A stretch of DNA of 64,000 nucleotides from Chitinophagales bacterium (GCA_046329775.1 JAXLTX010000002.1:530231-594230); one strand, 5' to 3'; shown: positions 4,585 to 25,854, counted from the stretch's first letter. Program-made: numbers and translations. Notes: generated from the letters alone by a model not told the origin.

Positions 4585-4745
4585 AATGTGTTTTGTGGAT
4601 AAATAACACCAAAACACATACGTATACATAAAAATACTTCTTTATCTTTAGGGAGTTAGAGATATGAAAAGTCATACCTATCTGGCTAATGGATAGTGGA
4701 TAGGTGTGATTTTGTCATACATATAAACAAGTTAGCAGCCATATT

Positions 4746-5228
4746 ATGACGACAAACACCTCGAAAAATAACGGACTAATAGTTGGAACAATCTTTACGG
4801 TTTGTTCATTCCTATTGACATTTACATTTGTTGTGCCGATTATTTCAGTATTACCTGGAGTGTTTTTTGAAACTATTTCAAAAGCCATTGTTTCAAATGA
4901 CCCATACAGTAATGTGGGTAATCTGACAATCCTTTTACTGACTGTTCTTCTTTTATTAGCAATTATCTTGACCATAGTTTATACAAGGAAACGTACACCG
5001 GCAAACGAAACTTTATCTAAAGGAAGATTGACACTAATAATGTTCGCTTTTTATTTTATCGTTCATCCATTAGGTTTTTATATTTATTGGGGACTAAATC
5101 TAAATTTTCGTAGTGACGGACAATTAATATTTGCGGCAGTAGACAGTTTTCCAATTTCAAGTTTTGCTTTTGTGCTATTGGGACTTTTAATTGACTGGAT
5201 AAGAAATACGGCTGCTAACACAGGCTAA
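4746..5228 (+). CDS. Hypothetical multi-pass membrane protein (AT-rich, islet-borne)
   Basis: 160 aa with about 4 hydrophobic helices. GC is lower than in the neighbours. The ORF is flanked by the inverted 10-mers GTTAGCAGCC (4731-4740) and GGCTGCTAAC (5210-5219). Confidence 0.5.
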   Translation: MTTNTSKNNGLIVGTIFTVCSFLLTFTFVVPIISVLPGVFFETISKAIVSNDPYSNVGNLTILLLTVLLLLAIILTIVYTRKRTPANETLSKGRLTLIMFAFYFIVHPLGFYIYWGLNLNFRSDGQLIFAAVDSFPISSFAFVLLGLLIDWIRNTAANTG

Positions 5229-7611: not shown

Positions 7612-7830
7612 CCAACGCTTTTGGTGGCACATTTGTATTTTTTTCAATGCACAGTCCAACGCTAAAAATCCAAAAGAGCCACCAAGCCAACGCACCACAG
7701 ACACTGCAAAAAATGGACAACAGAGCAACGACAGACAAAACGCCAGCACCTAATCGAGTAGACTGCCTCACCGCCCTATGAGGTGAGGTGCGCCTCTCAC
7801 ACCACCGCACGTACGGGTTTCGTTCACTTA

Positions 7831-7855
7831 TCGGTTGGTAGTCCCCACCAACCGA
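7831..7855. repeat. Family-2 hairpin repeat (CGGTTGGT...ACCAACCG)
   Basis: TCGGTTGGT (7831-7839) pairs with ACCAACCGA (7847-7855) across a 7-nt loop. Related copies occur at 25789-25810 and as a half-site at 16029-16046. Confidence 0.7.
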
Positions 7856-7932
7856 AACATAGTATGTTTGGTGAGCCACCAAGCATTAGCAACAAACATT
7901 CAACACATTTTATACTTTTAACGACAAAAACC

Positions 7933-12883: not shown

Positions 12884-14206
12884 GCCACGTTCCGAATGTT
12901 CAGTTTTATACCATGTTTAGGTTTCAGGGTGACCAGCGGCTCAAACTCAACTTTTTGATTTTTATCCAATTCAAAATCAAAATGGTATAGCAACTGTGCC
13001 AGCAGTATCGTCATTTCCATAGTGGCAAAATAAAAGCCGATACACATCCTTGGTCCACCGCCAAATGGAAAATAGGCATTGCCGTTGAACAATGGATTAT
13101 CTTTCTTCAAAACGTTCCGGGATAAATTCATCCGGCTGCGTCCAGTATGCCGGATGACGATGTAGGTGATAAATGCTCATCAGCGTTACCGTTCCCTTGG
13201 GTATGTCTGTTTCATTTACCACATCCTCTTCCTTGCTTTCCCGACTCAGCATATATGCCGTTGGATACAGGCGCAGCGTTTCATCAATAACGGCCTTCAG
13301 ATAGGTGAATTGCCTGTACCGCTCCATCGTCAAAGCTCCATCTTGCATAATCTGCTGAACTTCAGCCTTTGCCTTTTTGTATTTCTCCGGATGGCTACAC
13401 AGGCAATACATGGCCCAGGAAATGGCATAACCGGAAGTCTCGTGTCCCGCCACATAAATCGTCAGCAGTTCATCGCGCAACTGACGGGTATCCATTCCTT
13501 CATTGGTGTCCAAATCCCTGGCGTCCAAGAGCATACTCAACAGATCATTCTTTGCATCCTGTCGTTTTCTTTGCTCTATCACATGGTACAGAATGGCATC
13601 CAGCGATTGTACGGAATGCTCAAATCGCTTCTTTTCACCATTCAGCGCAGACCATATTTCAAAAAACGGATTTCGGATGCATTTCACCATGTACAACTGC
13701 AATTCATAGATATGCTTTTGTATTTGGTTCAGCTGACCGGAAACATCGGCACCCAATAAGGTTTCCACGACAACTCTTGAGGTGAGTTGCATCATCTCCG
13801 CGTCAATGAAAACCGTTTGTTTGTTTTGCTTCTTCCACTCTTCCATTTCATTTTTCGCCAATCTGTTCATCACATCGAAAAAGCCTTCCAGCCGTGTCTT
13901 GTAAAATGCCGGTTGCGCCAGTCTGCGTTGTTTGAACCATGATTCCCCTTCATTCGTGAGCAGGCCATTGCCCAATACCATTTTCAGCTTATTGGAGGCA
14001 TAATCTTTTCTGTAATTCTTATGATTGGATACGAGGATCTGCTGTATAACGTCGGCATCGCAGGTGGCAAAAATTGTACGCATCGGAAGTGTAAAAATGA
14101 AAGACTTCTGATGTTCGAAATTCCGTCCCATGAACCGGATGATATCCTTGGAAATATCCAATGCACTGCCTAAAAGCGGTAAGGATTTAAGGACCGGTGT
14201 ACGCAT
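12880..14206 (-). pseudogene. Cytochrome P450, interrupted by a +/-1 frameshift (or a sequencing error)
   Basis: ORF 13097..14206 ends ...PERFEER*. The heme-binding loop FPFGGGPRMCIG is in ORF 12880..13131 in another frame. The two frames overlap at 13097-13131 around an A/T run. Confidence 0.8.
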
Positions 14207-14287
14207 TCTTTTATAAAAATACGCAATATCAATAATAGTGGATAAGGTTGTACCCGTTTTTTAATAAGAATATGTATTTTTGAAGCG

Positions 14288-15076
14288 ATGCTTAATTTTT
14301 TCCAAATAGAAGAATACATTCATTACTGGATCACCTCCTTTAACAAGTATAAAATACATTCCCCGTATATCTTCAGGCTGGTGACGGAAGTCTTCGAGAA
14401 GCAACTGCTTTATGAAGATTTCGAACGGATTGAACGTGTGCGCGATGATCTGAAAGATAATGAGACGGTGATTGACGTGGTGGACCTGGGAGCAGGTTCC
14501 AGGGCCTTTAAGACGCAGCACCGCAAAATAAGCCGGATTGTACGAAAGAGCGTTAAGAAAGAAAAATACGGCCATCTCCTGTTCATGATGATTCGTCATC
14601 TGAAAGCAAACTCCATTCTGGAACTGGGAACCTCACTGGGCATTACGACGGCTTATATGGCTTCCGCGCATCCCAACACCAAAGTGATTACGGTGGAAGG
14701 AAGTGAATCCATAGCAAAGATAGCGCAGGAAAATTTCAATAAATTAAAATTGAAAAACATAAACCTGGTGGTCGGAAATTTTGACCATGTCCTGAAGGGC
14801 ATCTGTGATGAACGCCAGAAGTTTGATTTGATTTTCATTGACGGCAATCACCGTGAACTTCCTACCATCAACTACTTCAACATCGTATTACCGTTCTGCC
14901 ACAACGATACCGTTCTTCTGTTTGACGACATCCATTGGAGTGAAGAAATGCAGGAAGCCTGGGAATACATCAAGAATCACGAAAAGGTGACCTGCACCAT
15001 TGATATCTTTGAAATGGGCATTGTATTTCTACGAAAAGAATTCCGCCAGAAACAGCACATGCAAATCACGTATTGA
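14288..15076 (+). CDS. Class I SAM-dependent (O-)methyltransferase
   Basis: SAM-binding motif ILELGTSLGITTAYMA and FDLIFIDGNH. The TAnnTTTG box TATTTTTG at 14275-14282 lies 5 nt from the ATG. Confidence 0.8.
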   Translation: MLNFFQIEEYIHYWITSFNKYKIHSPYIFRLVTEVFEKQLLYEDFERIERVRDDLKDNETVIDVVDLGAGSRAFKTQHRKISRIVRKSVKKEKYGHLLFMMIRHLKANSILELGTSLGITTAYMASAHPNTKVITVEGSESIAKIAQENFNKLKLKNINLVVGNFDHVLKGICDERQKFDLIFIDGNHRELPTINYFNIVLPFCHNDTVLLFDDIHWSEEMQEAWEYIKNHEKVTCTIDIFEMGIVFLRKEFRQKQHMQITY

Positions 15077-15095
15077 GTTGCAAAAACGCCAGCTG

Positions 15096-15635
15096 TCAGA
15101 TGACATGAACGCCGTCATCCTCGTCCTTAAAAAACTCTTTCTTTAGATAGACAGCATCCCTTGGATTCATCTTACCCGCATTGATCAGGCGCAATTCGCG
15201 ACGATGCAAGGCATCTTCGTACAATTCCTTTTCGCGCTCCGACTCCGGCACCACTTCAGCACACCTGATGGGTTTTCCCTGAAAATCCAGTCCCACAAAG
15301 GAAAAAAATGCCTCGTGCGATTTCACTTCTTCCTGTGTCTTGATATTTTTGATAAACACTTCGCAAATCACTTCCATAGATGTATTGAAGGCACGGGTTA
15401 CAAAGGACTTCAAAATGACAATATCTCCCATCTTTATGGGCAGATTGAAAGATACATTATCCAGACTTGCCGTAACCGAAATGCCACCGCTGTGCTTGAT
15501 GGCGGAAATGCCTGCACAAACGTCCATCCAGCTCAGCAGATGCCCACCCATCAGGTTCCCTATCGGATTGGTATGTCCGGGCATAATGAGTTCTGTATGA
15601 ATATTTAGCGTGTCTGATACTTTTCTAGGTTCCAT
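15096..15635 (-). CDS. Acyl-CoA thioesterase (hotdog fold, YciA-like)
   Basis: ELIMPGHTNPIGNLMGGHLLSWMDVCAGI is typical of acyl-CoA hydrolases. The start was chosen at MEPRKV; the longest ORF extends to 15689. Confidence 0.8.
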   Translation of the reverse strand: MEPRKVSDTLNIHTELIMPGHTNPIGNLMGGHLLSWMDVCAGISAIKHSGGISVTASLDNVSFNLPIKMGDIVILKSFVTRAFNTSMEVICEVFIKNIKTQEEVKSHEAFFSFVGLDFQGKPIRCAEVVPESEREKELYEDALHRRELRLINAGKMNPRDAVYLKKEFFKDEDDGVHVI

Positions 15636-15706
15636 TCCACAAAAATAAACGATATTCATTAATGATTGTTTATTAAACATCATAAACATTAAATAAAATA
15701 TTTTCC

Positions 15707-15714
15707 TACTTTTG
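15707..15714 (+). promoter_or_regulatory. Candidate -7 box (TAnnTTTG) for tRNA-Arg
   Basis: TACTTTTG lies 21 nt upstream of the tRNA 5' end. Confidence 0.45.
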
Positions 15715-15734
15715 CAAACACCTTACAAAAAAAT

Positions 15735-15808
15735 GGCTGCGTAGTTCAATTGGATAGAATATCAGATTTCGGCTCTGAGGGTTGAGGGTTCGAATCCTTC
15801 CGCGGTCA
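15735..15808 (+). tRNA. tRNA-Arg (anticodon UCG)
   Basis: Hand-folded cloverleaf: 7-bp acceptor stem (two G-U pairs), D stem GTTC/GAAT, anticodon stem TCAGA/TCTGA with loop TT-TCG-GC, T arm GAGGG-TTCGAAT-CCTTC, discriminator A. No encoded CCA. Confidence 0.85.
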
Positions 15809-15822
15809 CTTTTATTTTCGGG

Positions 15823-15860
15823 AAAAGCTGTAATTTAACAAATTACAGCTTTTATATTTT
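15823..15860 (+). terminator. Rho-independent terminator after tRNA-Arg
   Basis: AAAAGCTGTAATTT pairs with AAATTACAGCTTTT (14-bp stem, 3-nt loop), followed by a T-rich tail. Confidence 0.7.
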
Positions 15861-15881
15861 AAGGGGAACTTACAGCTTACT

Positions 15882-15985
15882 TACAAGTACGATTCGGCAG
15901 AATGTTGGTCAGGAAGACCAATAACGGCGAGGGGTAGTTAAGTATCCGATTGAACATGTTCTTTGTTTGGCACAAGCACGCCACG
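15882..15985. repeat. 104-bp direct repeat, copy a (family-2 unit with hairpin TTGGTC...GACCAA and GGGTAGTT motif)
   Basis: By eye it is identical to 16462-16565. Confidence 0.85.
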
Positions 15986-16046
15986 CTCACCGCTTGGCTG
16001 CATGCTCGCGCCAGTGGGAGTAGTTTGGTTTCGGTTGGTGAGGACA

Positions 16047-16135
16047 CCCCGCCCTCGACAGGTGTTTTCACCTGTCGACTGCCATACCGTTTATCTTGCA
16101 AAGACCTATTCATCATAAGCAGCTATAAAATTTCC
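16047..16135. repeat. Solo left end of the RAYT element (H1 hairpin plus last ~50 nt of the transposase gene)
   Basis: CCCCGCCCT-CGACAGGTGTTTTCACCTGTCG-ACTGCCATACCGTTTATCTTGCAAAGACCTATTCATCATAAGCAGCTATAAAAT. A second tail-only copy lies at 16146-16195. Confidence 0.8.
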
Positions 16136-16203
16136 GTACAAATATGTCGACTGCCATACCGTTTATCTTGCAAAGACCTATTCATATAAGCAGCACGTTT
16201 TCT

Positions 16204-16373
16204 CGACAGGTGTTTTCACCTGTCGACTGCCATACCGTTTATCTTTCAGCACACACATACGCTTAAATTTATAAAATAAATTTCGTTTAAAGGAGATCAT
16301 TCTTTGCGGCTAGTAGTTGGCAGGTGACGCATGCGCGCTAAAGCTTGCAAGCTAAACACCTGCCACGGGCGGG
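16204..16373. repeat. MITE-like non-autonomous unit (H1 ... H2)
   Basis: H1 is at 16204-16225. H2 arms are at 16319-16326 and 16357-16364. The H2 loop carries GCATGCGCGC and the 12-bp perfect palindrome AGCTTGCAAGCT. The unit ends in ACGGGCGGG. Confidence 0.8.
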
Positions 16374-16456
16374 TATATCATGTTTAAAAATAACACTAAT
16401 TTTCGGATTTCATTTCGGTTCGTAGTTGACAGGTGACAACACCTGTCAAGGGCAGG
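16374..16456. repeat. Solo right end of the RAYT element (first codons of the transposase plus GTAG-H3 hairpin)
   Basis: TATATCATGTTTAAAAATAAC...TCGTAGTTGACAGGTGACAACACCTGTCAAGGGCAGG matches 19216-19305 of the intact element. Confidence 0.8.
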
Positions 16457-16461
16457 ATACG

Positions 16462-16565
16462 TACAAGTACGATTCGGCAGAATGTTGGTCAGGAAGACCA
16501 ATAACGGCGAGGGGTAGTTAAGTATCCGATTGAACATGTTCTTTGTTTGGCACAAGCACGCCACG
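16462..16565. repeat. 104-bp direct repeat, copy b
   Basis: Identical to 15882-15985. Here the next H1 element follows immediately at 16566. Confidence 0.85.
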
Positions 16566-16974
16566 CCCCCGCCCTCGACAGGTGTTTTCACCTGTCGACT
16601 GCCATACCGTTTATCTTTCAGCACACACATACGTTTAAATTTATAAAATAAATTTCGTTTAAAGGAGATCACTCTTTGCGGCTAGCAGTTGGCAGGTGAC
16701 GCATGCGCGCTAAAGCCCCGCCCTCGACAGGTGTTTTCACCTGTCGCGCCTCGACAGGTGTTTTCATTTTGTCGACTGCCATACCGTTTATATGCAAAAA
16801 ACCTCACGCTTATCTTTTAATATTTTATTATATACAGTTCAGCACACACATACGCTTAAATTTATAAAATAAATTTCGTTTAAAGGAGATCATTCTTTGC
16901 GGCAAGTAGTTGGCCGGTGACGCATGCGCGCTAAAGCTTGCAAGCTAAACACCTGCCAAGGGCGGGGGGGGGGG
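16566..16974. repeat. Nested MITE-like units (one interrupted inside the H2 loop by another H1 end), ending in a G11 tract
   Basis: H1 at 16576-16597. H2 is cut at ...GCGCGCTAAAG|CCCCGCCCTCGAC (about 16716). H1 at 16725-16746, with a degenerate H1 at 16752-16775. A variant H2 (GGCCGGTG) starts at 16913. G11 runs 16964-16974. Confidence 0.75.
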
Positions 16975-17475
16975 CACCTGTCGACTGCCATACCGTTTAT
17001 CTTGCAAAGACCTATTCATCATAAGTAGCTATAAAATCCCATACACTTTTATTCTGCAAAAAATGCTCAGCGCTTGAATATTTATATTCTTCAGGCACTT
17101 TACACAAGCCAGCCCTTACCGGATTGTTATGTATATAATCCATTTTTTGAGTAAATACCTTCTCACTGTATAAATCTACCGATAATGAATCAGTTTTCCA
17201 AATCATATATGTTCGATCATAGTGATTAACTTTACAGGTATCCAATAATACTAAGTCATGTTGTTTTAAGTAAAACATAATTTGTTGAGCAGTATATTTC
17301 AAAAAATCTCGCTGTACATCTTTTAGCAAGTGTGGTGATCTTATTCGCCAGATTAAATGTAAATGGTTACTCATAATTACAAATCCATATACATTAACTC
17401 TGTTAGCTTTTACAAGGAATCTTAAACTATCTATGATAATGTCTTTTACAGCATCGTCCTTCAAAAGATGATTCC
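16975..17475 (-). mobile_element. 5'-truncated copy of the RAYT element (lacks right end and first ~18 codons; left hairpin halved)
   Basis: It begins with the half hairpin CACCTGTCGACTGCC and ends at ...GATGATTCC|CCGCCCTCGAC, where another H1 end abuts. It is nearly identical to 18684-19170. Confidence 0.8.
17012..17475 (-). pseudogene. IS200-like Y1 (HUH) transposase, RAYT-type, N-terminally truncated
   Basis: It retains the HUH motif SNHLHLIW and the Tyr motif DYIHNNPVRAGL but lacks MIYEENHPQFFTATIYEW. It differs from the intact copy at only a few residues (KDIII vs KYIII; IATYDE vs IAAYDE). Confidence 0.8.
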
Positions 17476-17696
17476 CCGCCCTCGACAGGTGTTTTCACCT
17501 GTCGACTGCCATACCGTTTATCTTGCAAAGACCTATTCATCATAAGCAGCTATAAAATCCCATACACCCCGCCCTCGACAGGTGTTTTCACCTGTCGACT
17601 GCCATACCGTTTATCTTTCAGCACACACATACGCTTAAATTTATAAAATAAATTTCGTTTAAAGGAGATCATTCTTTGCGGCTAGTAGTGGCAGGT
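17476..17696. repeat. Solo left end (17476-17566) followed by a MITE-like unit truncated in the H2 5' arm (17567-17696)
   Basis: H1 at 17483-17504 and 17576-17597. H2 stops at GTAGTGGCAGGT|TCTTTG. Confidence 0.8.
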
Positions 17697-17854
17697 TCTT
17701 TGTTTGGCACAAGCATGCCACGTTTGATTAATGGATGCATGCTTGCAGCAATAGGGAACTTAATGGTTGCGGTCAGAGACCGGCAGATTTAGTACACACG
17801 AGTGTACCTGCGGAACACTCGCGCGAGATGGGTAGTTGGGGAACACTATCTACA
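17697..17854. repeat. Family-2 structured repeat (three hairpins)
   Basis: CAAGCATGC pairs with GCATGCTTG. GCGGTC-AGA-GACCGG forms a second hairpin. CGAGTGT-ACCTGCGGA-ACACTCG forms a third. The unit ends with GGGTAGTTGGGG. Confidence 0.7.
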
Positions 17855-18274
17855 TTACTGCTCGGCTGATTTTATAGCTCTTTTAATTTCATCTTTTATC
17901 AAAAAGTCAAATTTCACAGGACAACTGTCATTTGCAGTAACCTCACACTCACTTATAGGGAAAATGGCATAACCTGAAATTAGAACAGTTTTATGATTAT
18001 TAACTATGGCAAAAGTCCTTAGAGATAAAAACAAAAGCTGTAATGATATTCCAAATAAATATTTGAATATATTATTACGCTTGAGATGAAAAAGAAAAAA
18101 AATAGCTAAAAGTGATATTACAAATACAATCATGTAGTTATATCTGACTAGGGAAACATTGTATGTTCCACTCTGGCCTGACAGTAAAAATTTCAATAAA
18201 TCTTCATCAATGATGCTAAATGAAGCAACTATCAAAATTAAAAGGCTAAATAGAATGTTCTTTATTTTATTCAT
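17855..18274 (-). CDS. Hypothetical membrane protein
   Basis: 139 aa with about 4 hydrophobic segments, AT-rich. It starts 1 nt after the upstream gene remnant. Confidence 0.45.
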   Translation of the reverse strand: MNKIKNILFSLLILIVASFSIIDEDLLKFLLSGQSGTYNVSLVRYNYMIVFVISLLAIFFLFHLKRNNIFKYLFGISLQLLFLSLRTFAIVNNHKTVLISGYAIFPISECEVTANDSCPVKFDFLIKDEIKRAIKSAEQ

Positions 18275-18275
18275 T

Positions 18276-18640
18276 TCATTCAGTTGTAAAGGTTACTCCC
18301 GCTGGAATAGTATTATCTTTATAAAACACAGGTGATACCAGTTTTTTATCACCATCTTGAATTAAAGTTGAAGATGATCCGCCATCAAATCCGAAAACGT
18401 AATCATATCCTTGACCAGCTAGTTTATCCCTTATAACATCGAGAGTCATTCCACCTGTTTTCATCTCATCAGGAGACACTACCAACATCATAGAGTTATT
18501 CTTACTGTTCAGAGCAATTATAACTTTTCCAACTGTCTTTGAATTTTGTGCGCCATATCCCTCTGCTTCACAATATTCACCATACTCCTTATTTGAATAT
18601 TTCTGTCCATCAACAATTATTGGAATTCCTCATCCAAAAC
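18276..18640 (-). pseudogene. Phosphodiester glycosidase (DUF2233/NAGPA-like) C-terminal remnant
   Basis: ...MMLVVSPDEMKTGGMTLDVIRDKLAGQGYDYVFGFDGGSSSTLI... The reading frame opens only at 18640, a few nt from the left end of the RAYT element (18653). Confidence 0.55.
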
Positions 18641-18652
18641 CTACTGTTGAAC

Positions 18653-19305
18653 CCCCGCCCTCGACAGGTGTTTTCACCTGTCGACTGCCATACCGTTTAT
18701 CTTGCAAAGACCTATTCATCATAAGCAGCTATAAAATCCCATACACTTTTATTCTGCAAAAAATGTTCAGCGCTTGAATATTTATATTCTTCAGGCACTT
18801 TACACAAGCCGGCCCTTACCGGATTGTTATGTATATAATCCATTTTTTGAGTAAATACTTTCTCGCTGTATAAATCTACCGATAATGAATCAGTTTTCCA
18901 AATCATATATGTTCGATCATAGTGATTAACTTTACAGGTATCCAATAATACTAAGTCATGTTGTTTTAAGTAAAACATAATTTGTTGAGCAGTATATTTC
19001 AAAAAATCTCGTTGTACATCTTTTAGCAAGTGTGGTGATCTTATTCGCCAGATTAAATGTAAATGGTTACTCATAATTACAAATCCATATACATTAACTC
19101 TGTTAGCTTTTACAAGGAATCTTAAACTATCTATGATAATGTATTTTACCGCATCATCCTTCAAAAGATGATTCCATTCATAAATGGTGGCGGTGAAAAA
19201 TTGCGGATGATTTTCTTCATATATCATGTTTAAAAATAACACTAATTTTCGGGTTTCATTTCGGTTCGTAGTTGACAGGTGACAACACCTGTCAAGGGCG
19301 GGGGG
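18653..19305 (-). mobile_element. Intact RAYT element: Y1 transposase flanked by inverted hairpin-containing ends
   Basis: Left end is CCCCGCCCTCGACAGGTGTTTTCACCTGTCGAC (18653-). Right end is GTAGTTGACAGGTGACAACACCTGTCAAGGGCGGGGGG (-19305). The reverse complement of the right end matches the left end at about 29 of 33 positions. Confidence 0.85.
18712..19227 (-). CDS. IS200-like Y1 (HUH) transposase, REP-associated tyrosine transposase (RAYT) type
   Basis: HUH motif VIMSNHLHLIW. Catalytic-Tyr helix KMDYIHNNPVRAGL. About 171 aa from ATG 19227; the ORF track starts at GTG 19242. Confidence 0.85.
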   Translation of the reverse strand: MIYEENHPQFFTATIYEWNHLLKDDAVKYIIIDSLRFLVKANRVNVYGFVIMSNHLHLIWRIRSPHLLKDVQRDFLKYTAQQIMFYLKQHDLVLLDTCKVNHYDRTYMIWKTDSLSVDLYSEKVFTQKMDYIHNNPVRAGLCKVPEEYKYSSAEHFLQNKSVWDFIAAYDE

Positions 19306-19365
19306 ATTTTGTAGACTCAGGTCGTCCTGCGGAAGACCTGCGCCAGAGTGGTGGAGTAGACAGTT
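19306..19365. repeat. Family-2 hairpin (CAGGTC-GTCCTGCGGAA-GACCTG)
   Basis: Same loop core CCTGCGGA as 17803-17826 but with a different, self-complementary stem. Confidence 0.6.
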
Positions 19366-19554
19366 TTACCTAAATAACTCAGCGATTGCCTTAATTAAAA
19401 AATAAAATCCACCTATAAAACAACTCATTATAACAGTAAAAGCTCTCCATTTATTACCAGCTGGATCATCGTCAGATTGATACTTATATTGAAAAAAGAA
19501 ACTAGCAAATCCAACTATTAATAATAAAACCCCATTTGTAATATCTGATTTCAT
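19366..19554 (-). CDS. Hypothetical small membrane protein (2 TM)
   Basis: 62 aa with two hydrophobic helices. It lies 8 nt downstream of a gene remnant. Confidence 0.4.
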   Translation of the reverse strand: MKSDITNGVLLLIVGFASFFFQYKYQSDDDPAGNKWRAFTVIMSCFIGGFYFLIKAIAELFR

Positions 19555-19686
19555 TGATTCAATTATTTATGTTCTTTATTTGTTTGAATATCTAAGGTTC
19601 TTTCTTCCGGTACTTCTAAAGTTTTATCTAGCAAGTAATCTTTACTTCTTTTTTGTGTTTCGTCTAAAATACCAGTTCCCAATTTA

Positions 19687-19951
19687 TCCCCGCCCTCGAC
19701 AGGTGTTTTCACCTGTCGACTGCCATACCGTTTATCTTGCAATATACATATACGCTTAAATTTATAAAATAAATTTCGTTTAAAGGAGATCATTCTTTGC
19801 GGCTAGTAGTTGGCAGGTGACGCATGCGCGCTAAAGCTTGCAAGCTAAACACCTGCCACGGGCGGGTATATCATGTTTAAAAATAACACTAATTTTCGGA
19901 TTTCATTTCGGTTCGTAGTTGACAGGTGACAACACCTGTCAAGGGCAGGGG
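19687..19951. repeat. Composite: MITE-like unit (subtype TTGCAATATACATATACGC) plus solo right end
   Basis: H1 at 19697-19718. H2 arms at 19812-19819 and 19850-19857. H3 at 19921-19940. From the H2 region onward it is identical to 16280-16456. Confidence 0.8.
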
Positions 19952-19956
19952 ATTTA

Positions 19957-20643
19957 GCCTTTAAACATCCTTCGTATGGGTTCAGAAAGCTGTTTGCCTA
20001 TATCCGCAGAGCAGGCAAAGGCTGGAATCATAAGCGGGTATATCGGATATATAAGCTGTTAAAGCTGAACAGAAAACGAAGAGGTAAAAGACGGCTGCCG
20101 GCAAGGGTAAAACAACCGCTGACACAACAGAGCCATATCAATCAAAGCTGGAGCATGGACTTTATGAGCGACAGTATGGTGGGCAATCGAAAGTTCAGAA
20201 CATTTAATGTGATGGATGACGGCTCCAGAGAAGTACTGGCTATAGAAGTAGATACCTCCCTTTCAGCAAAAAGAATTATAAGGACATTGCAACAAATTAT
20301 CAGCCACAGAGGAAAACCACAAATGATAAGAACAGACAACGGACCGGAATTCACCTCCAAGGACTTTGAGCTATGGTGTACAGACAATGAAATCAAACTT
20401 CAATATATTCAACCCGGAAGGCCCATGCAGAATGGTTATATAGAACGATTTAACCGGCTGTATCGGGAAGCGGTATTGGATGCTTACTTGTTCTTTGATC
20501 TGTCTGAAGTAAGAACACTCACCGATGAATGGATAGAGGAATACAATCACAGACGACCACACGAATCTTTACAAAACCAAACGCCCAATGAATGGAAAAT
20601 TAATTTATTAAATCAACAAAATACTCTAATTTGCACTGTCTGA
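19957..20643 (+). pseudogene. IS3-family transposase OrfB (DDE/rve integrase core), 5'-truncated
   Basis: The frame is open from 19957 (DLAFKHPSYGFRKLFAYIRRAGKGWNHKRVYRIYKLL...) through the rve core (...IRTDNGPEFTS...YIQPGRPMQNGYIERFN...YNHRRPHESL). There is no OrfA or left IR. It starts directly at the repeat end (19951). Confidence 0.8.
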
Positions 20644-20972
20644 AAAAAGGGGTACTTACACGCTAATTCATTCCTGTCAATATAAATATTTACTTCTACT
20701 GATTTTTCCATTACTTCTAAACTACCTGCCCCTGTCGCTACTACCTGATTTAAATCTATTGAAGCTTGCTCAAAATTTCTTAGCTCAAAGTAGGACAAAC
20801 CTCTTAAACCCAATAATTCTTTATTCTTTTTTTTGTCTAAACCCTTATTTGCTATCTCTATAACTTTACTGTAGTCTTTATTATTATATGCTACTTGAGC
20901 TTCTCTTACGTAATCCTTTGCACAAGAATTCATACATATCAAACAATAAAATCCGATTAGATAATTTTTCAT
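20613..20972 (-). CDS. TPR-like lipoprotein, probably 3'-disrupted by the IS3 remnant
   Basis: Lipoprotein signal MKNYLIGFYCLICMNSC and a TPR-like repeat. The last ~15 codons overlap the IS3 right end (to about 20660), so the native C-terminus is probably lost. Confidence 0.5.
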   Translation of the reverse strand: MKNYLIGFYCLICMNSCAKDYVREAQVAYNNKDYSKVIEIANKGLDKKKNKELLGLRGLSYFELRNFEQASIDLNQVVATGAGSLEVMEKSVEVNIYIDRNELACKYPFFQTVQIRVFC

Positions 20973-21093
20973 AAATACTATTTTTTTTGATAATTTGTTT
21001 TTGCACCTACGCCTACGCCTACTTTAAGTGGGCTATTTTTCCCGCCAACACCTTTATCTATTCCTACATTAACACCACTTCTTTCCCAACTAC

Positions 21094-21278
21094 TCGACTG
21101 CCATACCGTTTATCTTGCAATATACATATACGCTTAAATTTATAAAATAAATTTCGTTTAAAGGAGATCATTCTTTGCGGCTAGTAGTTGGCAGGTGACG
21201 CATGCGCGCTAAAGCTTGCAAGCTAAACACCTGCCACGGGCGGGTAGTTGACAGGTGACAACACCTGTCAAGGGCGGG
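21094..21278. repeat. Composite: hairpin-less left tail plus MITE-like body (H2) plus H3
   Basis: CGACTGCCATACCGTTTATCTTGCAATATACATATACGC... H2 arms at 21190-21197 and 21228-21235. H3 at 21250-21269. The ~50-nt transposase-start stub seen in the other composites is missing (GGGCGGGTA|GTTGAC). Confidence 0.8.
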
Positions 21279-21425
21279 ACCGGCGGGATACGGATCTGGG
21301 GTCATCTGACATTGCCCCTACTGTAGTCATTTTATATGCTTTGCATTCTCCTCTGAGTTTTTCTTTCTGTTTAAGCTTATAATGATTACCTTTAAGTGGC
21401 GGATGTATCTCCGTCGAATGATTAA

Positions 21426-21989
21426 ATGAATCCTGAAGAAAACACCGGACTGCCTGCAAAAAAGGGAACAACGGATATCTTTGAAATCAGCATCTGGCTG
21501 GATTCCTATGAGGATATCTTTTCCGATTTTGATTCAAGGCCTTTGTCGGAACGCACCGTTTCCGATGACTTTCTGTCGGAAGTCAAGAAGGTATGCGATG
21601 AAAAAAGCAGGAATAAAATCCACCTTAAGCTTTCCATGCCGGAACCCCTCAGAAACACTGACCATGAGGCAGTTATCACCAAACGGCTTCATTTATACTT
21701 CCAGAACAGCCACCGTATGCTGGAGAAGGATGCCCGTAAAAAAAACATCCGAGGCATTTATTTCATTCTGGCCGGCATGCTGCTGATGCTCTGCGCCAGT
21801 TATATCTCCTTTCTGAAACCACAGAAATTCTACATACACACCCTGCTGATTCTGTTTGAGCCTGCCGGTTGGTTTTTCCTATGGTCCGGCCTGGATCACC
21901 TCGTTTACTTCTCTAAAAGCAAGAAGGCAGACTTAATTTATTTCAACAAGATGGCGGAAGCGGTCATTCGGTTTGATAGTATTAAATAA
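21426..21989 (+). CDS. Hypothetical membrane protein
   Basis: 187 aa with an acidic N-terminal domain and two C-terminal hydrophobic helices. Confidence 0.55.
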   Translation: MNPEENTGLPAKKGTTDIFEISIWLDSYEDIFSDFDSRPLSERTVSDDFLSEVKKVCDEKSRNKIHLKLSMPEPLRNTDHEAVITKRLHLYFQNSHRMLEKDARKKNIRGIYFILAGMLLMLCASYISFLKPQKFYIHTLLILFEPAGWFFLWSGLDHLVYFSKSKKADLIYFNKMAEAVIRFDSIK

Positions 21990-22170
21990 ACAACTCACAA
22001 TCAATATATTAAATAAAATTATTCAACTCTTGCTTTCTCTGAAAACTTCATAAAAAGCCTGATTCCTACCCAATAAATAATCCCCGTATTATCCACTTTG
22101 ATTGTTAAAAACAGTTCAAAAATGTACATAACTACCCGTTTTCCATAAAATGGAATTGAACGATTTCATG

Positions 22171-22178
22171 TATATTTG
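22171..22178 (+). promoter_or_regulatory. Candidate -7 box (TAnnTTTG) for smc
   Basis: TATATTTG lies 41 nt upstream of the smc ATG. Confidence 0.35.
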
Positions 22179-22218
22179 CAGGTTCTGGATTTTCCATAGA
22201 ACTGAATAAATTAGACCG

Positions 22219-25200
22219 ATGAGACTGAGAAGTTTGGACATTAAGGGATTTAAGAGTTTTGCCGATAAAACGCAGATCAATTTTGATAACAACATTACCG
22301 GCATCGTAGGACCGAACGGCTGCGGTAAATCCAATGTGGTGGATGCGATCCGCTGGGTATTGGGGGAGCAAAAAACCAAGGCACTTCGTCTGGAAAAGAT
22401 GGACAACATCATCTTTAACGGTACCAAAGATAAATCTGCCGCCAACGTAGCGGAAGTTTCCATTACGCTGGATAACACCAGAAACCTCCTTCCTACCGAA
22501 TTTTCCAGTGTTACCATTACCAGAACAGTGGAACGCGACGGCGACAGTGACTACAAACTGAACGGTGTCTCCTGCCGTTTAAAAGATATCCGCGACCTGT
22601 TCATGGATACCGGTATCTCCACCGATACCTATGCCATCATCGAGCTGAAGATGATTGACCAGATCCTGAACAACGTAGACAATGCGCGCCGTACCCTGAT
22701 TGAACAGGCGGCCGGCATCTCCAAATACAAGACCAGAAAGAAGGAAACGCTGGCAAAACTACAGGCAACGGAAGGCGATTTGAACCGCGTGGAAGACTTG
22801 CTGTTTGAAATCGACAAGAACCTGAAATCACTGGAATCACAGGCAAAGAAAGCGCGCCAGTACAAAAACTACAAGGAGGAATACAAGGTCATTTCCATCG
22901 ACCTTTCAAAATACGAGCTGCACGACATCAACGAGAGTTTCACACTTTCCAACAGGGAGATTGAAGAATACGAAGACAAACGCCTGGAAGCCAACACTCA
23001 GATTGAAGTGATGGAAGCCAATCTCGAAAAGGAGAAACTGGCAGTTTTGGATAAGGAAAGAACATTGTCTGACCAGCAAAAGCAACTCAATGCCTTCTTA
23101 TCACAATTGCAGGAAAAGGAAAGCCAGAAAAAGATAGACCAGCAGAAATCCACCTTCCTGAAAAACCAGATCGTACAGCTGAACCAGCAGATCACACAGG
23201 CAAAAGCCATCATTGAAACGCTGAGCAGAGAGATAGAGCAACTGACACACTACAACGAGGAAGACGAAAACAAACTGGAAGTGATCCGTGTGGAATTTGA
23301 CGATGCGAAAGCCAAATTGGAAGAACAGCGAAATGCCAATCTGGAGTTCAGAAACAACCTGGACGAGGCACGCAACAGACACGCTTCCAGTGTTAACAAG
23401 ATAACGGAAACCGAAAAACTGATTGCCGTCAAAGAATCACAGTATGAAGCCCTGCAACGCAGTGCACAGCAGTCGATGTTTGAAAATGAGGAGCGCATCA
23501 AAACGCTGGAAGGTTTGCGCAATGACATCGCACATACCGAAGAAAAAATAGAAAAGCAGAAACTGCTGGTGGATGACCTTCGCAGAAAGGAAGAGGAGAA
23601 CATGGAGAAAATCCAGCTGCTCGAAGAAAAGACCGAACAGCTCCGTCAGGATTTAACCAACAAAAACAGGACCTTAGACGCAAAAAACAACGAATTCAAG
23701 CTCACCAAAAACATGATAGACAATCTGGAAGGTTTTCCGGAATCCATCAAGTTTTTAAAGAAAAATGTCAACTGGCTGAAAGACACACCTTTACTTTCTG
23801 ATATTATTTACTCAGAAGAAAAATACCGTGTAGCCATTGAAAGCGTACTCCAGCCCTACCTCAACAACTTTGTGGTGGATACGGAAAACGAAGCCATCAA
23901 CGCGATTGATGTTTTATCTCAAAGTTCCGTCGGTAAAGCCAGCTTTTTGATTTTAGATTATTTTAAAAAGACTACCGCTAACGGTGATCAGTCGACGCTG
24001 GACAATACCAAAAAAGCGATTGATGTGGTTCAGATTGATGAAAAGTTTAAACCGCTCTTATCTTATCTGTTAAACGGCATTTATATAGCAGATGAAGGCA
24101 CGGATGTAAACAACATCTTTGATAAAATAGAAAACAAGAAAGACATTTACATCATTTCCAATTCCGGCCATTTGCTGAAATCCGACAAACAGATTTCCGG
24201 CGGTGCGGTTGGTTTATTTGAAGGAAAACGTCTAGGCCGTTTAAAGAATCTCGAAATTCTGGAAAAGGAAATCAAGGAACTGGAAACCGAAGTGATGCAC
24301 CTGAAGAAAGTGACACAGGACAATTACAACGAACTCCAGCACCTGAAAGTGAATTCATATCGCAACGTGATAGACCGCGAGTCGCATCAGTTGCAGCAGA
24401 TAGAGAAAGAACTGGTGGCAAAAAGATCCAAGATAGAAAGTGAGGAGAATTCGATTGGCAAGATCACTTCACAGGCGCAGGCATTGCACGAACAGATTGA
24501 GCGCATGCTGGAAGAGATTGAACCGCTCCGAACCATATTGAGCGAACATATCGCCACCTCCAACGAACACAAGAATGTGCTGGATAATCTGGAAATAGAT
24601 TTCAGAAAAGCAAATGAGCTGTACAACCAGTTTTCACAGGCGTTCAACCAGACGAATATTTTATTCATTCAGCAGGAAAACAAACTGAAATCCAACCAGC
24701 AGACCTTGACCTACAAGCAACACCAGCTGGAAGAGAATCAGAACCGTTTAAAAAATGCGACCAATGATATTGAGAACTCTCAGCTGGAGATTGACATTCT
24801 GACGGAATCCATCGAAAAACTGGAAACGGAACTGATAGAATCGTACAAGGAAAAAGAAGCGCAGATGCAGTCGCTCTCCACACAGGAAACCGATTACTAC
24901 AAGGTAAAGGACGGCATCAACGCGATTGAAGATGCCATTCGTGAGAAAAACAAATCCAAGCAACTCATAGAGCAAACCATCATGAGCAAGAAGGAATTGC
25001 TAAGCGAACTGAAACTGAAATTGAATGTTTTAAAAGAACGCTTATCCATTGAATTCCACATCGATGCGGAAGAATTTACGGCGAACCTTGAACTGCCGGA
25101 AACGCCGAAAGAAGACCTGGCAGACCGACTGGATAAGGTGAAACGCCGTATCGAAAACTTTGGTGAGGTGAACCCGATGGCGGAAGAAGCCTATAACGAA

Positions 25201-25788: not shown

Positions 25789-25810
25789 CGATTGGTGTCC
25801 TCACCAACCG
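25789..25810. repeat. Family-2 hairpin repeat between convergent genes (possible terminator)
   Basis: CGATTGGTG-TCCT-CACCAACCG. Its reverse complement, CGGTTGGTGAGGACACCAATCG, matches the half-site at 16032-16046. Confidence 0.7.
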
Positions 25811-25854
25811 AAAACGAATCTTAATTAAAACACCAAGTATATAAAAGTTAAATT

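Follow-up and report, generated by a model that had tools for sequence, protein, structure and literature searches.

A likely nest of RAYT elements and their gene-less derivatives beside a tRNA-Arg gene in a Chitinophagales genome

Beside a tRNA-Arg gene in a metagenome-assembled genome (MAG) labelled Chitinophagales bacterium lies a 5.4-kb mosaic of repeats, from ~15860 to 21280 of the window (by which we mean the whole 64,000-nucleotide stretch of DNA that was analysed). Within it is an intact gene for a REP-associated tyrosine transposase (RAYT, or TnpA_REP; REP, repetitive extragenic palindrome), set between inverted hairpins. We consider it likely that the locus is a REPtron-like nest of one RAYT element family resembling an insertion sequence (IS), together with its non-autonomous derivatives, assembled through local transposition, with recombination and deletion altering it afterwards. 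The source contig is 610 kb long and, by exact protein matches, carries locus tags U0X41_; close relatives were found on activated-sludge and wastewater metagenome contigs, which are referred to below by our own labels (L001 and so on).

The autonomous unit measures about 651-655 bp, and a gene of 171 codons fills its interior. Its ends read CCCC(C)GCCCT-H1-ACTGCC and GTAGT-H3-AGGGCGGGG(G), where H1 is the hairpin CGACAGGTGTTTTCACCTGTCG and H3 the hairpin TTGACAGGTGACAACACCTGTCAA; they form a terminal inverted repeat of 35 nt (91% complementary), inside which H1 lies at 18662 and H3 at 19272. From the inside outwards, each end consists of the foot G(T/C)AG-T, a hairpin whose stem is 10 bp and whose loop is 4 nt, and then AGGGCGGGG. 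GTAG-T precedes H3 and also H2, a longer hairpin described below, and the left end reads GCAG-T on the opposite strand; in L018 the GTAG and GCAG feet are swapped. The boundaries of the element are CCCCGCCC / GGGCGGGG, and a truncation point recurs at (G)TCGACTGCC. Folded as single-stranded DNA, H1 reaches -11.8 kcal/mol (z -7.3) and H3 -11.9 kcal/mol (z -5.1). When the flanks of six full copies were compared, no direct repeat that would mark a target-site duplication was found beside any copy, and comparison of all junction flanks, left and right, gave no shared target motif except a frequent AT after the right end. The first-pass annotation of this DNA had described REP-like hairpins in a REPtron-like architecture, and both descriptions hold: each hairpin has a GTAG-type foot, and the RAYT gene sits between inverted cognate hairpins here as in most of its homologues.

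The gene with both of its ends recurs at 97.5-99.8% identity in at least five contexts with unrelated flanks: in the window (twice) and on L001/L002, L003, L098/L099 and L100/L101 (also on L102, where the flanks are chimeric). Between copies there are 1-16 substitutions per ~650 nt, and L103, from another species, holds the unit at 86% identity. A nested partial copy of 197 nt is also present on L001/L002. On the source contig, one protein cluster at 90% identity has three members, namely the two window copies and MFN8260083.1 (U0X41_03995), a partial protein encoded ~43 genes downstream of the window locus, in which HLY replaces HLH and whose diagnostic substitutions match the L100-L102 copies. 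As the second copy is truncated and the third is partial with HLY, the gene at 18712-19227 is the only intact RAYT known on the contig. The RAYT gene has clearly been copied to several places and cannot be called a lone resident. The usual description of RAYTs is of single-copy, domesticated genes, and a 2021 experimental paper states that mobility of tnpA_REP has no evidence behind it and that the spread of REPs is still not understood (PMC8266576), yet a small percentage of near-identical duplicates was seen in some RAYT groups (Bertels et al., PMC5581495); copying of the kind found here is therefore not common, though it has precedents. L102 has its left flank in common with the window copy and its right flank in common with the L100 copy; it is a recombinant between the two or a chimera of short-read assembly.

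A gene-less unit of 262 bp, which we call M, shares these ends. It consists of the autonomous left end, the long-looped hairpin H2, 85 nt of RAYT leader and the autonomous right end, with ~195 nt between the ends. The window has only two complete copies (16202-16456 and 19686-19953, 98% identical), which lie inside the cluster along with all the partial ones; an M copy of 99.2% identity on L008 occupies another position and supplies a third junction. In other strains (L098/L099), the full autonomous unit uses the same right-end junction that is occupied in the window by an M remnant (21278). By its ends, M is a non-autonomous derivative of the type of a REPIN (REP doublet forming a hairpin) or a MITE (miniature inverted-repeat transposable element): it is non-coding, has the same two inverted ends and is found in several contexts. 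It lacks the target duplication of a classical MITE, none being present at any junction, and with two complete and about five partial copies it falls short of the high copy number of REPINs. H2 resembles an earlier version of the end; in L018, the nearest species-level relative (RAYT 81% identical), the element ends are themselves H2-like long hairpins. Contexts were also counted in a protein collection through the peptide encoded across the left end of M, which returned only three weak matches and was uninformative.

The transposase is a RAYT and not an ordinary IS200 TnpA. The window protein passes the NCBIfam model NF047646 (REP_Tyr_transpos) with 82.8-83.4 bits against a cutoff of 80, and the model is matched by 20/20 aligned homologues; transpos_IS200 is matched weakly by 4/20, the window protein not among them, and Pfam Y1_Tnp gives the window protein 16.5 bits, under its cutoff of 23. 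The sole sequence match of the family profile in the PDB is 4ER8, the Escherichia coli TnpA_REP, which is also the best fold match of an AlphaFold model (pLDDT 91, pTM 0.87) with E 2.9e-8 and TM 0.63-0.65 over 169 columns; ISDra2 TnpA and IS608 TnpA follow. The HUH motif is NHLH, the catalytic Tyr lies within YIHNNP, where IS200 has Y...Q, and a YSSA motif stands near the C-terminus. Across 20 homologues N53-H54-L-H56 and Y130 never vary, and N-H-x-H, QRDF, DR..W, QK.DYIH.NP and Y.YSSA are likewise invariant in the alignment. The family has >1600 matches, mostly in Chitinophagales, Cytophagales and Sphingobacteriales, and its members are labelled 'REP element-mobilizing transposase RayT' in IMG.

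Judged by motifs, length (~171 aa) and host, the protein fits the Bacteroidota TnpA_REP subclass 2.6, equivalent to RAYT Group 5 (PMC6006769; PMC5581495). The published signature of this Bacteroidetes-dominated subclass comprises NH[LIV]H, WQ, YIH[QN]NP and a proximal C-terminal SS motif in proteins of ~179 aa (PMC6006769), so that host, size (171-179 aa), HUH and tyrosine motifs and C-terminal SS all agree. Many homologues of the window protein are flanked by GCCGTTGTTGGTG..CACCAACAAC, the hairpin type given for the Runella 2.6 example AEI49282.1 (PMC6006769 Table S1). The W motif differs, being WK here and WQ in the subclass 2.6 paper, although the family as a whole has W(K/Q/E) and WQ is found in many homologues. 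Differences extend to copy number and hairpins: subclass 2.6 averages 1.8 copies per genome with ~41% mutual identity (PMC6006769), whereas at least three copies here fall into one 90% cluster on one contig, the two window copies are 98% identical in DNA, and a unit of gene plus ends occurs in several contexts, unlike the subclass as described. The hairpins here are regular, short and GTAG-footed, while those of subclass 2.6 are called 'atypical' in the paper. The earlier label of 'RAYT-type transposase' was thus accurate, given the NF047646 match, the 4ER8 fold and the YIHNNP motif. The accompanying remark that such material is unusual in Bacteroidota was not: the fit to subclass 2.6 and the large Bacteroidota family make a RAYT system in this phylum nothing out of the ordinary.

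The array is made up as follows, by window coordinates.

15735-15809, plus strand: tRNA-Arg (anticodon TCG), left border of the variable region
15860-16047, plus strand: unit B, a block of several hairpins that belong to other REP types (TTGGTCAGGAAGACCAA; GGCACAAGCACGCC...GGCTGCATGCTCGCGCC), repeated at 16458-16566 (99%) and partly at 17690-17852
16047-16131, plus strand: solo left end of autonomous type, H1 and the first 85 nt, 100% identical to full-element positions 4-88
16145-16194, plus strand: left-end fragment without hairpin, beginning at GTCGACTGCC, 98% against element positions 30-80
16202-16456, plus strand: M copy 1, with left end and H1, long H2 hairpin, RAYT 5' leader, right end and H3; 98% against 19695-19949
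16458-16566, plus strand: second, partial unit B, 99% against 15878-15986
16566-16974, plus strand: stack of cut M pieces (order given below)
16975-17475, plus strand: truncated autonomous element, positions 26-526, 98.2% against the full copy
17012-17464, minus strand: remnant RAYT open reading frame (ORF); tblastn covers aa 19-171
17474-17696, plus strand: solo left end of autonomous type (17474-17567), then an M piece from left end to start of H2 (17567-17696)
17690-17852, plus strand: unit C, more hairpins belonging to other REP types, of which some have a GTAG-like foot; also present in L008
17855-18650, minus strand: orphan cassette, a 3' gene fragment, weakly NAGPA-like (18276-18650), then a 139-aa membrane-like ORF (17855-18274); arrangement confirmed by L105
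18650-19306, plus strand: complete autonomous element, ~655 bp
18712-19227, minus strand: intact RAYT (TnpA_REP) gene, 171 aa
19366-19687, minus strand: orphan cassette, a 3' gene fragment (19563-19687), then a 62-aa membrane-like ORF (19366-19554)
19686-19953, plus strand: M copy 2, complete; arrangement confirmed by independent contigs L106 and L107
19950-20643, plus strand: IS3-family element without its left part, the 3' portion of orfB remaining (rve, rve_3; transpos_IS3 model positions 221-368)
20613-21092, minus strand: orphan cassette, a 3' gene fragment (20975-21092), then a 119-aa TPR-like ORF (20613-20972)
21094-21278, plus strand: M remnant without left-end hairpin, M positions 31-183 including H2, joined straight to the right end with H3

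Eight exact copies of H1 (16056, 16204, 16576, 16725, 17483, 17576, 18662 and 19697) stand against a chance expectation of 0.00, and one degenerate copy (~16753) and one half copy (16975) accompany them, so the earlier count of at least nine was fair. The six H2 and four H3 previously reported are also there, H2 as four complete copies (16317, 16910, 19810 and 21188) and two truncated ones (~16689-16716 and 17682-17696), and H3 as four exact copies (16426, 19272, 19919 and 21248). The same annotation had listed an intact and a truncated Y1/HUH gene, a truncated IS3 and orphan gene fragments, all of which are present. Its region began at 15735, which is the start of the tRNA itself (15735-15809 by ARAGORN; Rfam tRNA, 61 bits), but the repeats do follow the tRNA closely, from ~50 nt after its 3' end, with the first H1 at 16056. 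Apart from the complete elements, the cluster contains three solo left ends, two hairpin-less left-end fragments, four cut M pieces and one cut autonomous copy, and blocks B, C and D are built from other hairpin types.

In the stack at 16566-16974, a piece running from the left end to mid-H2 (16566-16716) is followed by a lone H1 (16716-16746), a degenerate left end (16749-16791) and M positions 61-181 including H2 (16846-16966), and closes on a poly-G run (16963-16974). Lying between the right end of an H2 and half a left end, which it joins, this run of ~11 G may be real or an assembly homopolymer error. The truncated autonomous element is without the first ~18 RAYT codons, the leader and the right end, is cut by the next left end, and departs from the L098 copy in only two places. 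The left-end tails (GACTGCCATACCG...), 11 in all, lie on the same strand as every H2 and every H3, and the 11 left ends all fall within 5.1 kb of the 64-kb window.

Near-identical strains differ at this locus. L008 and L009, whose flanks are 99.3-99.7% identical to the window, are without 16100-17564 and 18390-19686, both of which are bounded by left ends; with both blocks missing, these strains have neither RAYT copy at the locus, and the same sample holds a RAYT on another contig. The first missing block lies between two left ends in direct orientation, and recombination between them would explain it. The second, of 1.3 kb, is flush with the left end of the M unit and represents a deletion in L008, because the window retains more of the cut gene fragment. 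At its right end, M copy 2 runs straight into the interior of the IS3 element, with a GGATTT microhomology at the junction; L010 (6979-8087) has an intact IS3, with orfA and orfB, at the place of the window fragment, and its left-hand neighbourhood differs wholly, with glycosyltransferase genes and no tRNA. L098 has a different, 122-aa gene where the window has a cassette. The junctions of L008/L009, L010 and L102 indicate that the locus has been remodelled through events with a breakpoint lying exactly at an element end.

The chemistry of these events, the strand used, the choice of target and the order of steps can be modelled on E. coli TnpA_REP and IS200/IS605 TnpA. By this analogy, the enzyme would bind the folded hairpin and its foot on single-stranded DNA and cut at the element boundary, forming a 5'-phosphotyrosine link, after which the strand would be rejoined elsewhere without duplication of the target. 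New copies would have landed preferentially near and inside existing copies, whether through local reinsertion, a preference for single-stranded or hairpin-rich targets, or the lack of essential genes in the stretch. Homologous recombination and end-flush deletions between same-orientation copies could then have given rise to the junctions at which a truncated copy meets a fresh left end, and to the differences between strains. Hairpins from at least two other REP families, the IS3 element and the orphan cassettes occupy this tolerant tRNA-adjacent stretch as well.

A bolder version of this model, which we put forward tentatively and think more likely wrong than right, is that a RAYT-clade transposase is acting as a live insertion sequence: gene and ends move, gene-less derivatives are spawned, and position differs between strains that are 99.3-99.9% identical. 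The end-anchored truncated stacks seen in three independent assemblies (the window, L001 and L018) might then record one-ended or replication-coupled copying by the HUH enzyme, and not ordinary insertion with later recombination. If that were true, the locus would offer a natural and tractable system for learning how RAYTs move REPs and REPINs.

Several observations weigh against a nest assembled by local transposition. At each junction of a copy with a following left end, the copy is truncated on its right and its remainder is never found beyond the inserted element, in the window, L001 or L018 alike; simple nested insertion is therefore insufficient, and extra deletion or recombination steps have to be assumed. 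Insertion followed by same-orientation recombination, enzyme-promoted end-flush deletion and one-ended copying could each explain the truncation pattern. The element boundaries have no CT dinucleotide, unlike the tested cleavage sites of TnpA_REP, so the position of cleavage is not predictable from known enzymes. Empty-site alleles, sought through the neighbouring 139-aa and 62-aa ORFs, did not appear, as only contigs with the same arrangement were returned; filled sites are consequently the basis for placing the ends exactly, for the target and for the lack of duplication. With copies diverged by 0.2-2.5%, activity may not be very recent. The segment 16100-17564, the densest part of the array, is known from this MAG assembly alone, no independent contig having been found to span it. 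Finally, the 64 kb read here are part of a larger genome, in which REP-like dispersal of H1-H3 is possible.

No second copy of the tRNA-Arg 3' end was found in the window with up to three mismatches allowed, and no integrase family appeared among the ORFs of 15.1-22 kb scanned against Pfam (shorter ORFs were not scanned), which included no recombinase-type gene apart from the RAYT and the IS3 rve fragment. A tRNA-targeting integrative island was rejected for having neither an integrase nor an att-like duplicate of the tRNA end. An integron-like cassette array, suggested by small same-strand ORFs that alternate with hairpins, was also rejected, since it has no IntI-type integrase and the hairpins are RAYT element ends. 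Because Rfam matched the tRNA alone, the hairpins do not belong to a curated RNA family. GC skew of the plus strand is weakly negative throughout the window, with neither origin nor terminus in view, too faint a signal for relating repeat orientation to replication.

How far the locus could instead be a classical domesticated REPtron, in which a single resident RAYT spreads REP or REPIN hairpins chromosome-wide from its 'home', was the question raised by the first-pass annotation, which saw here a source of dispersed repeats. The RAYT-clade enzyme with its inverted cognate hairpins, the presence of one intact RAYT only on the contig, and the occurrence of same-core hairpins as RAYT-less intergenic singletons or doublets on three metagenome contigs would all suit such a home. 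Against it, H1, H2, H3 and the left-end tails have zero copies in the remaining ~58 kb of the window, gene and both ends move as a unit between contexts, and a near-identical strain has no RAYT here while its sample has one on another contig; we regard a home locus as unlikely, and that part of the earlier proposal is not supported. A hypervariable tRNA-adjacent islet of orphan cassettes, with the RAYT elements as passengers or shuffling agents, seems to us more doubtful still. Three modules of a 3' gene fragment and a small ORF do lie on the minus strand between the repeats, their content varies by strain (the 122-aa gene of L098 and the left-hand neighbourhood of L010), and a preprint reports a link of TnpA_REP genes with lanthipeptide genes in picocyanobacteria (10.1101/2020.03.09.984088). 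This islet, however, has neither integrase nor duplicated tRNA end, the cassette proteins are without informative domains, and only adjacency ties the hairpins to the cassette borders.

That the array is largely an assembly artefact, with mis-joined or inflated repeats in the MAG, is less probable again. Such an explanation would draw on the related short-read contigs (L011-L017) that end inside repeats, the chimeric flanks of L102, the poly-G run and the unspanned segment, but independent metagenome contigs from other samples reproduce 14001-16100, 17660-18682 and 19058-23000 (the last as 19058-19950 plus 19707-23000) at 99.3-100%, and the same nesting recurs in the unrelated assemblies L001, L018 and L019. 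Least credible of all is an ordinary decayed IS200/IS605 pile-up, which we consider very improbable. The first-pass annotation had named hairpins absent from the rest of the genome, together with complete IS copies and an ordinary IS200/IS605 TnpA, as the finding that would speak against its own proposal, and the outcome is mixed; complete, near-identical, multi-copy IS-like units without target duplication do exist, and the fold is common to IS608 and ISDra2 TnpA, but the enzyme is of the RAYT clade. Y1_Tnp failed, transpos_IS200 was unmatched and REP_Tyr_transpos was passed, YIHNNP stands in place of the IS200 Y...Q (PMC6006769 Table 1), a true terminal inverted repeat with a GTAG foot replaces the asymmetric same-strand hairpins of IS200/IS605 left and right ends, and no tnpB is present.

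Among known systems, Marinomonas sp. MWYL1 (Nunvar 2010; Corneloup 2021, PMC8266576) provides a published precedent in its REPtrons Ma and Mb, where cognate REPs are likewise concentrated beside tnpA_REP and not scattered through the genome, a pattern that the authors read as recent arrival followed by local multiplication (PMC8266576). Ma and Mb have Group 2 and Group 3 enzymes and belong to a gammaproteobacterium; mobility of their gene is unreported, and neither a 262-bp composite derivative nor truncated gene copies are described for them, unlike here. The E. coli REPtron (4ER8, with REPs and bacterial interspersed mosaic elements, BIME) supplies the best structural match and shares the 5' GTAG-footed hairpin and the inverted REPs around the gene. 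Its TnpA_REP is nevertheless only 18% identical to the window protein, its gene is single-copy and immobile, its REPs are dispersed in the hundreds with bulged stems, and its enzyme cleaves at CT, which the boundaries here do not contain. IS200/IS605 elements (IS608, ISDra2) resemble the unit in their small HUH/Y1 enzyme, hairpin ends, absence of target duplication and near-identical complete copies, and they share with the locus an orientation bias, as is expected for single-strand transposition; they differ in enzyme clade (the IS200 models failed here and the motif is YxxxNP), in having ends that are not inverted repeats, and in tnpB, which is absent here. The REPINs of Pseudomonas fluorescens SBW25 (Bertels and Rainey 2011, PMC3116915) are, like M, non-autonomous, with two inverted cognate hairpins and movement presumably by a RAYT, and ~105-bp doublets on L004 are similar. 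M is set apart from them by its 262 bp, the ~195 nt between its ends and the third hairpin, H2, inside.

A compact RAYT unit of ~655 bp with clear ends, near-identical copies, a non-autonomous derivative and presence or absence between strains makes the locus a convenient candidate for direct tests of RAYT-driven movement. The locus also shows REP families of several RAYT lineages piling up in one tolerant tRNA-adjacent stretch of a wastewater Chitinophagales genome. The gain is an informative example and not a new principle, as the subclass and the hairpin-flanked layout have already been published for Bacteroidota.

Comparable arrangements exist among relatives. In ~40/49 homologous loci, the gene has on either side an inverted repeat of 11 nt or more, in most cases a hairpin; the flanking stems differ between lineages while the palindrome is kept, which agrees with the published co-evolution of RAYTs and REPs. 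Most of these loci have only the two flanking hairpin copies within 20 kb, and some show stacks. L019 (8687-11260), a Chitinophagaceae contig with a RAYT 52% identical, has nine same-orientation ends upstream of the gene and five inverted ones downstream, and L018 combines one full copy with a solo end and a partial copy. A scan for exact hairpins gave zero matches in species-representative genomes, where the source species is unrepresented or its repeats unassembled, and zero in viral contigs. In metagenome contigs it found three diverged contigs of other organisms, on which the hairpins stand alone or (on L004) as the ~105-bp inverted doublets, intergenic and without a RAYT; REP- or REPIN-like spread therefore occurs in the wider family.

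The hairpins noted earlier at 7831 and 25789 as related to the array are real and of a different family, not that of the H1-H3 element.

7831-7855, plus strand: family-2 hairpin TCGGTTGGT-loop-ACCAACCGA, z -4.5
25789-25815, plus strand: family-2 hairpin just after an SMC gene, z -3.9

Both are intergenic, and a truncated arm of the same type (16028-16047), cut by the first left end, closes unit B. The family-2 type flanks paralogous RAYTs in L074 (10689-10712) and L092, and its own RAYT is not in the window. Other types in blocks B and C also have counterparts: the long hairpin GGCACAAGCACGCC...GGCTGCATGCTCGCGCC resembles the REP of the Pedobacter saltans 2.6 RAYT (PMC6006769 Table S1), and TTGGTCAGGAAGACCAA resembles a hairpin flanking the L068 RAYT. 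As these types match other RAYTs, the tRNA-adjacent stretch collects REPs of several RAYT lineages together with IS3 and three orphan modules. Beside the family-2 hairpin, a small intergenic cluster of GC-rich hairpins (7750-7880) includes a GTAG-footed one, GTAGACTGCCTCACCGCCCTATGAGGTGAGG.

In the remaining parts of the array, the IS3 fragment with rve and rve_3 domains lies at 20155-20643, and the NAGPA-like similarity of the gene fragment at 18276-18650 is below cutoff (E 3e-4). M units carry a start codon that reads outward through the left end (MISFKRNLFYKFKR...), at 16178-16300, 17550-17672 and 19563-19793 on the minus strand; at 19688 this codon joins a cut upstream gene fragment in frame to give a 76-aa ORF, which is probably fortuitous. 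Elsewhere in the window, a conserved non-coding stretch without an Rfam match lies at 4667-4756, just 5' of the ORF at 4746-5228, and recurs in L018 (7755-7820, 81%) and L005 (3926-3969, 91%); it may be a conserved leader or regulatory element.

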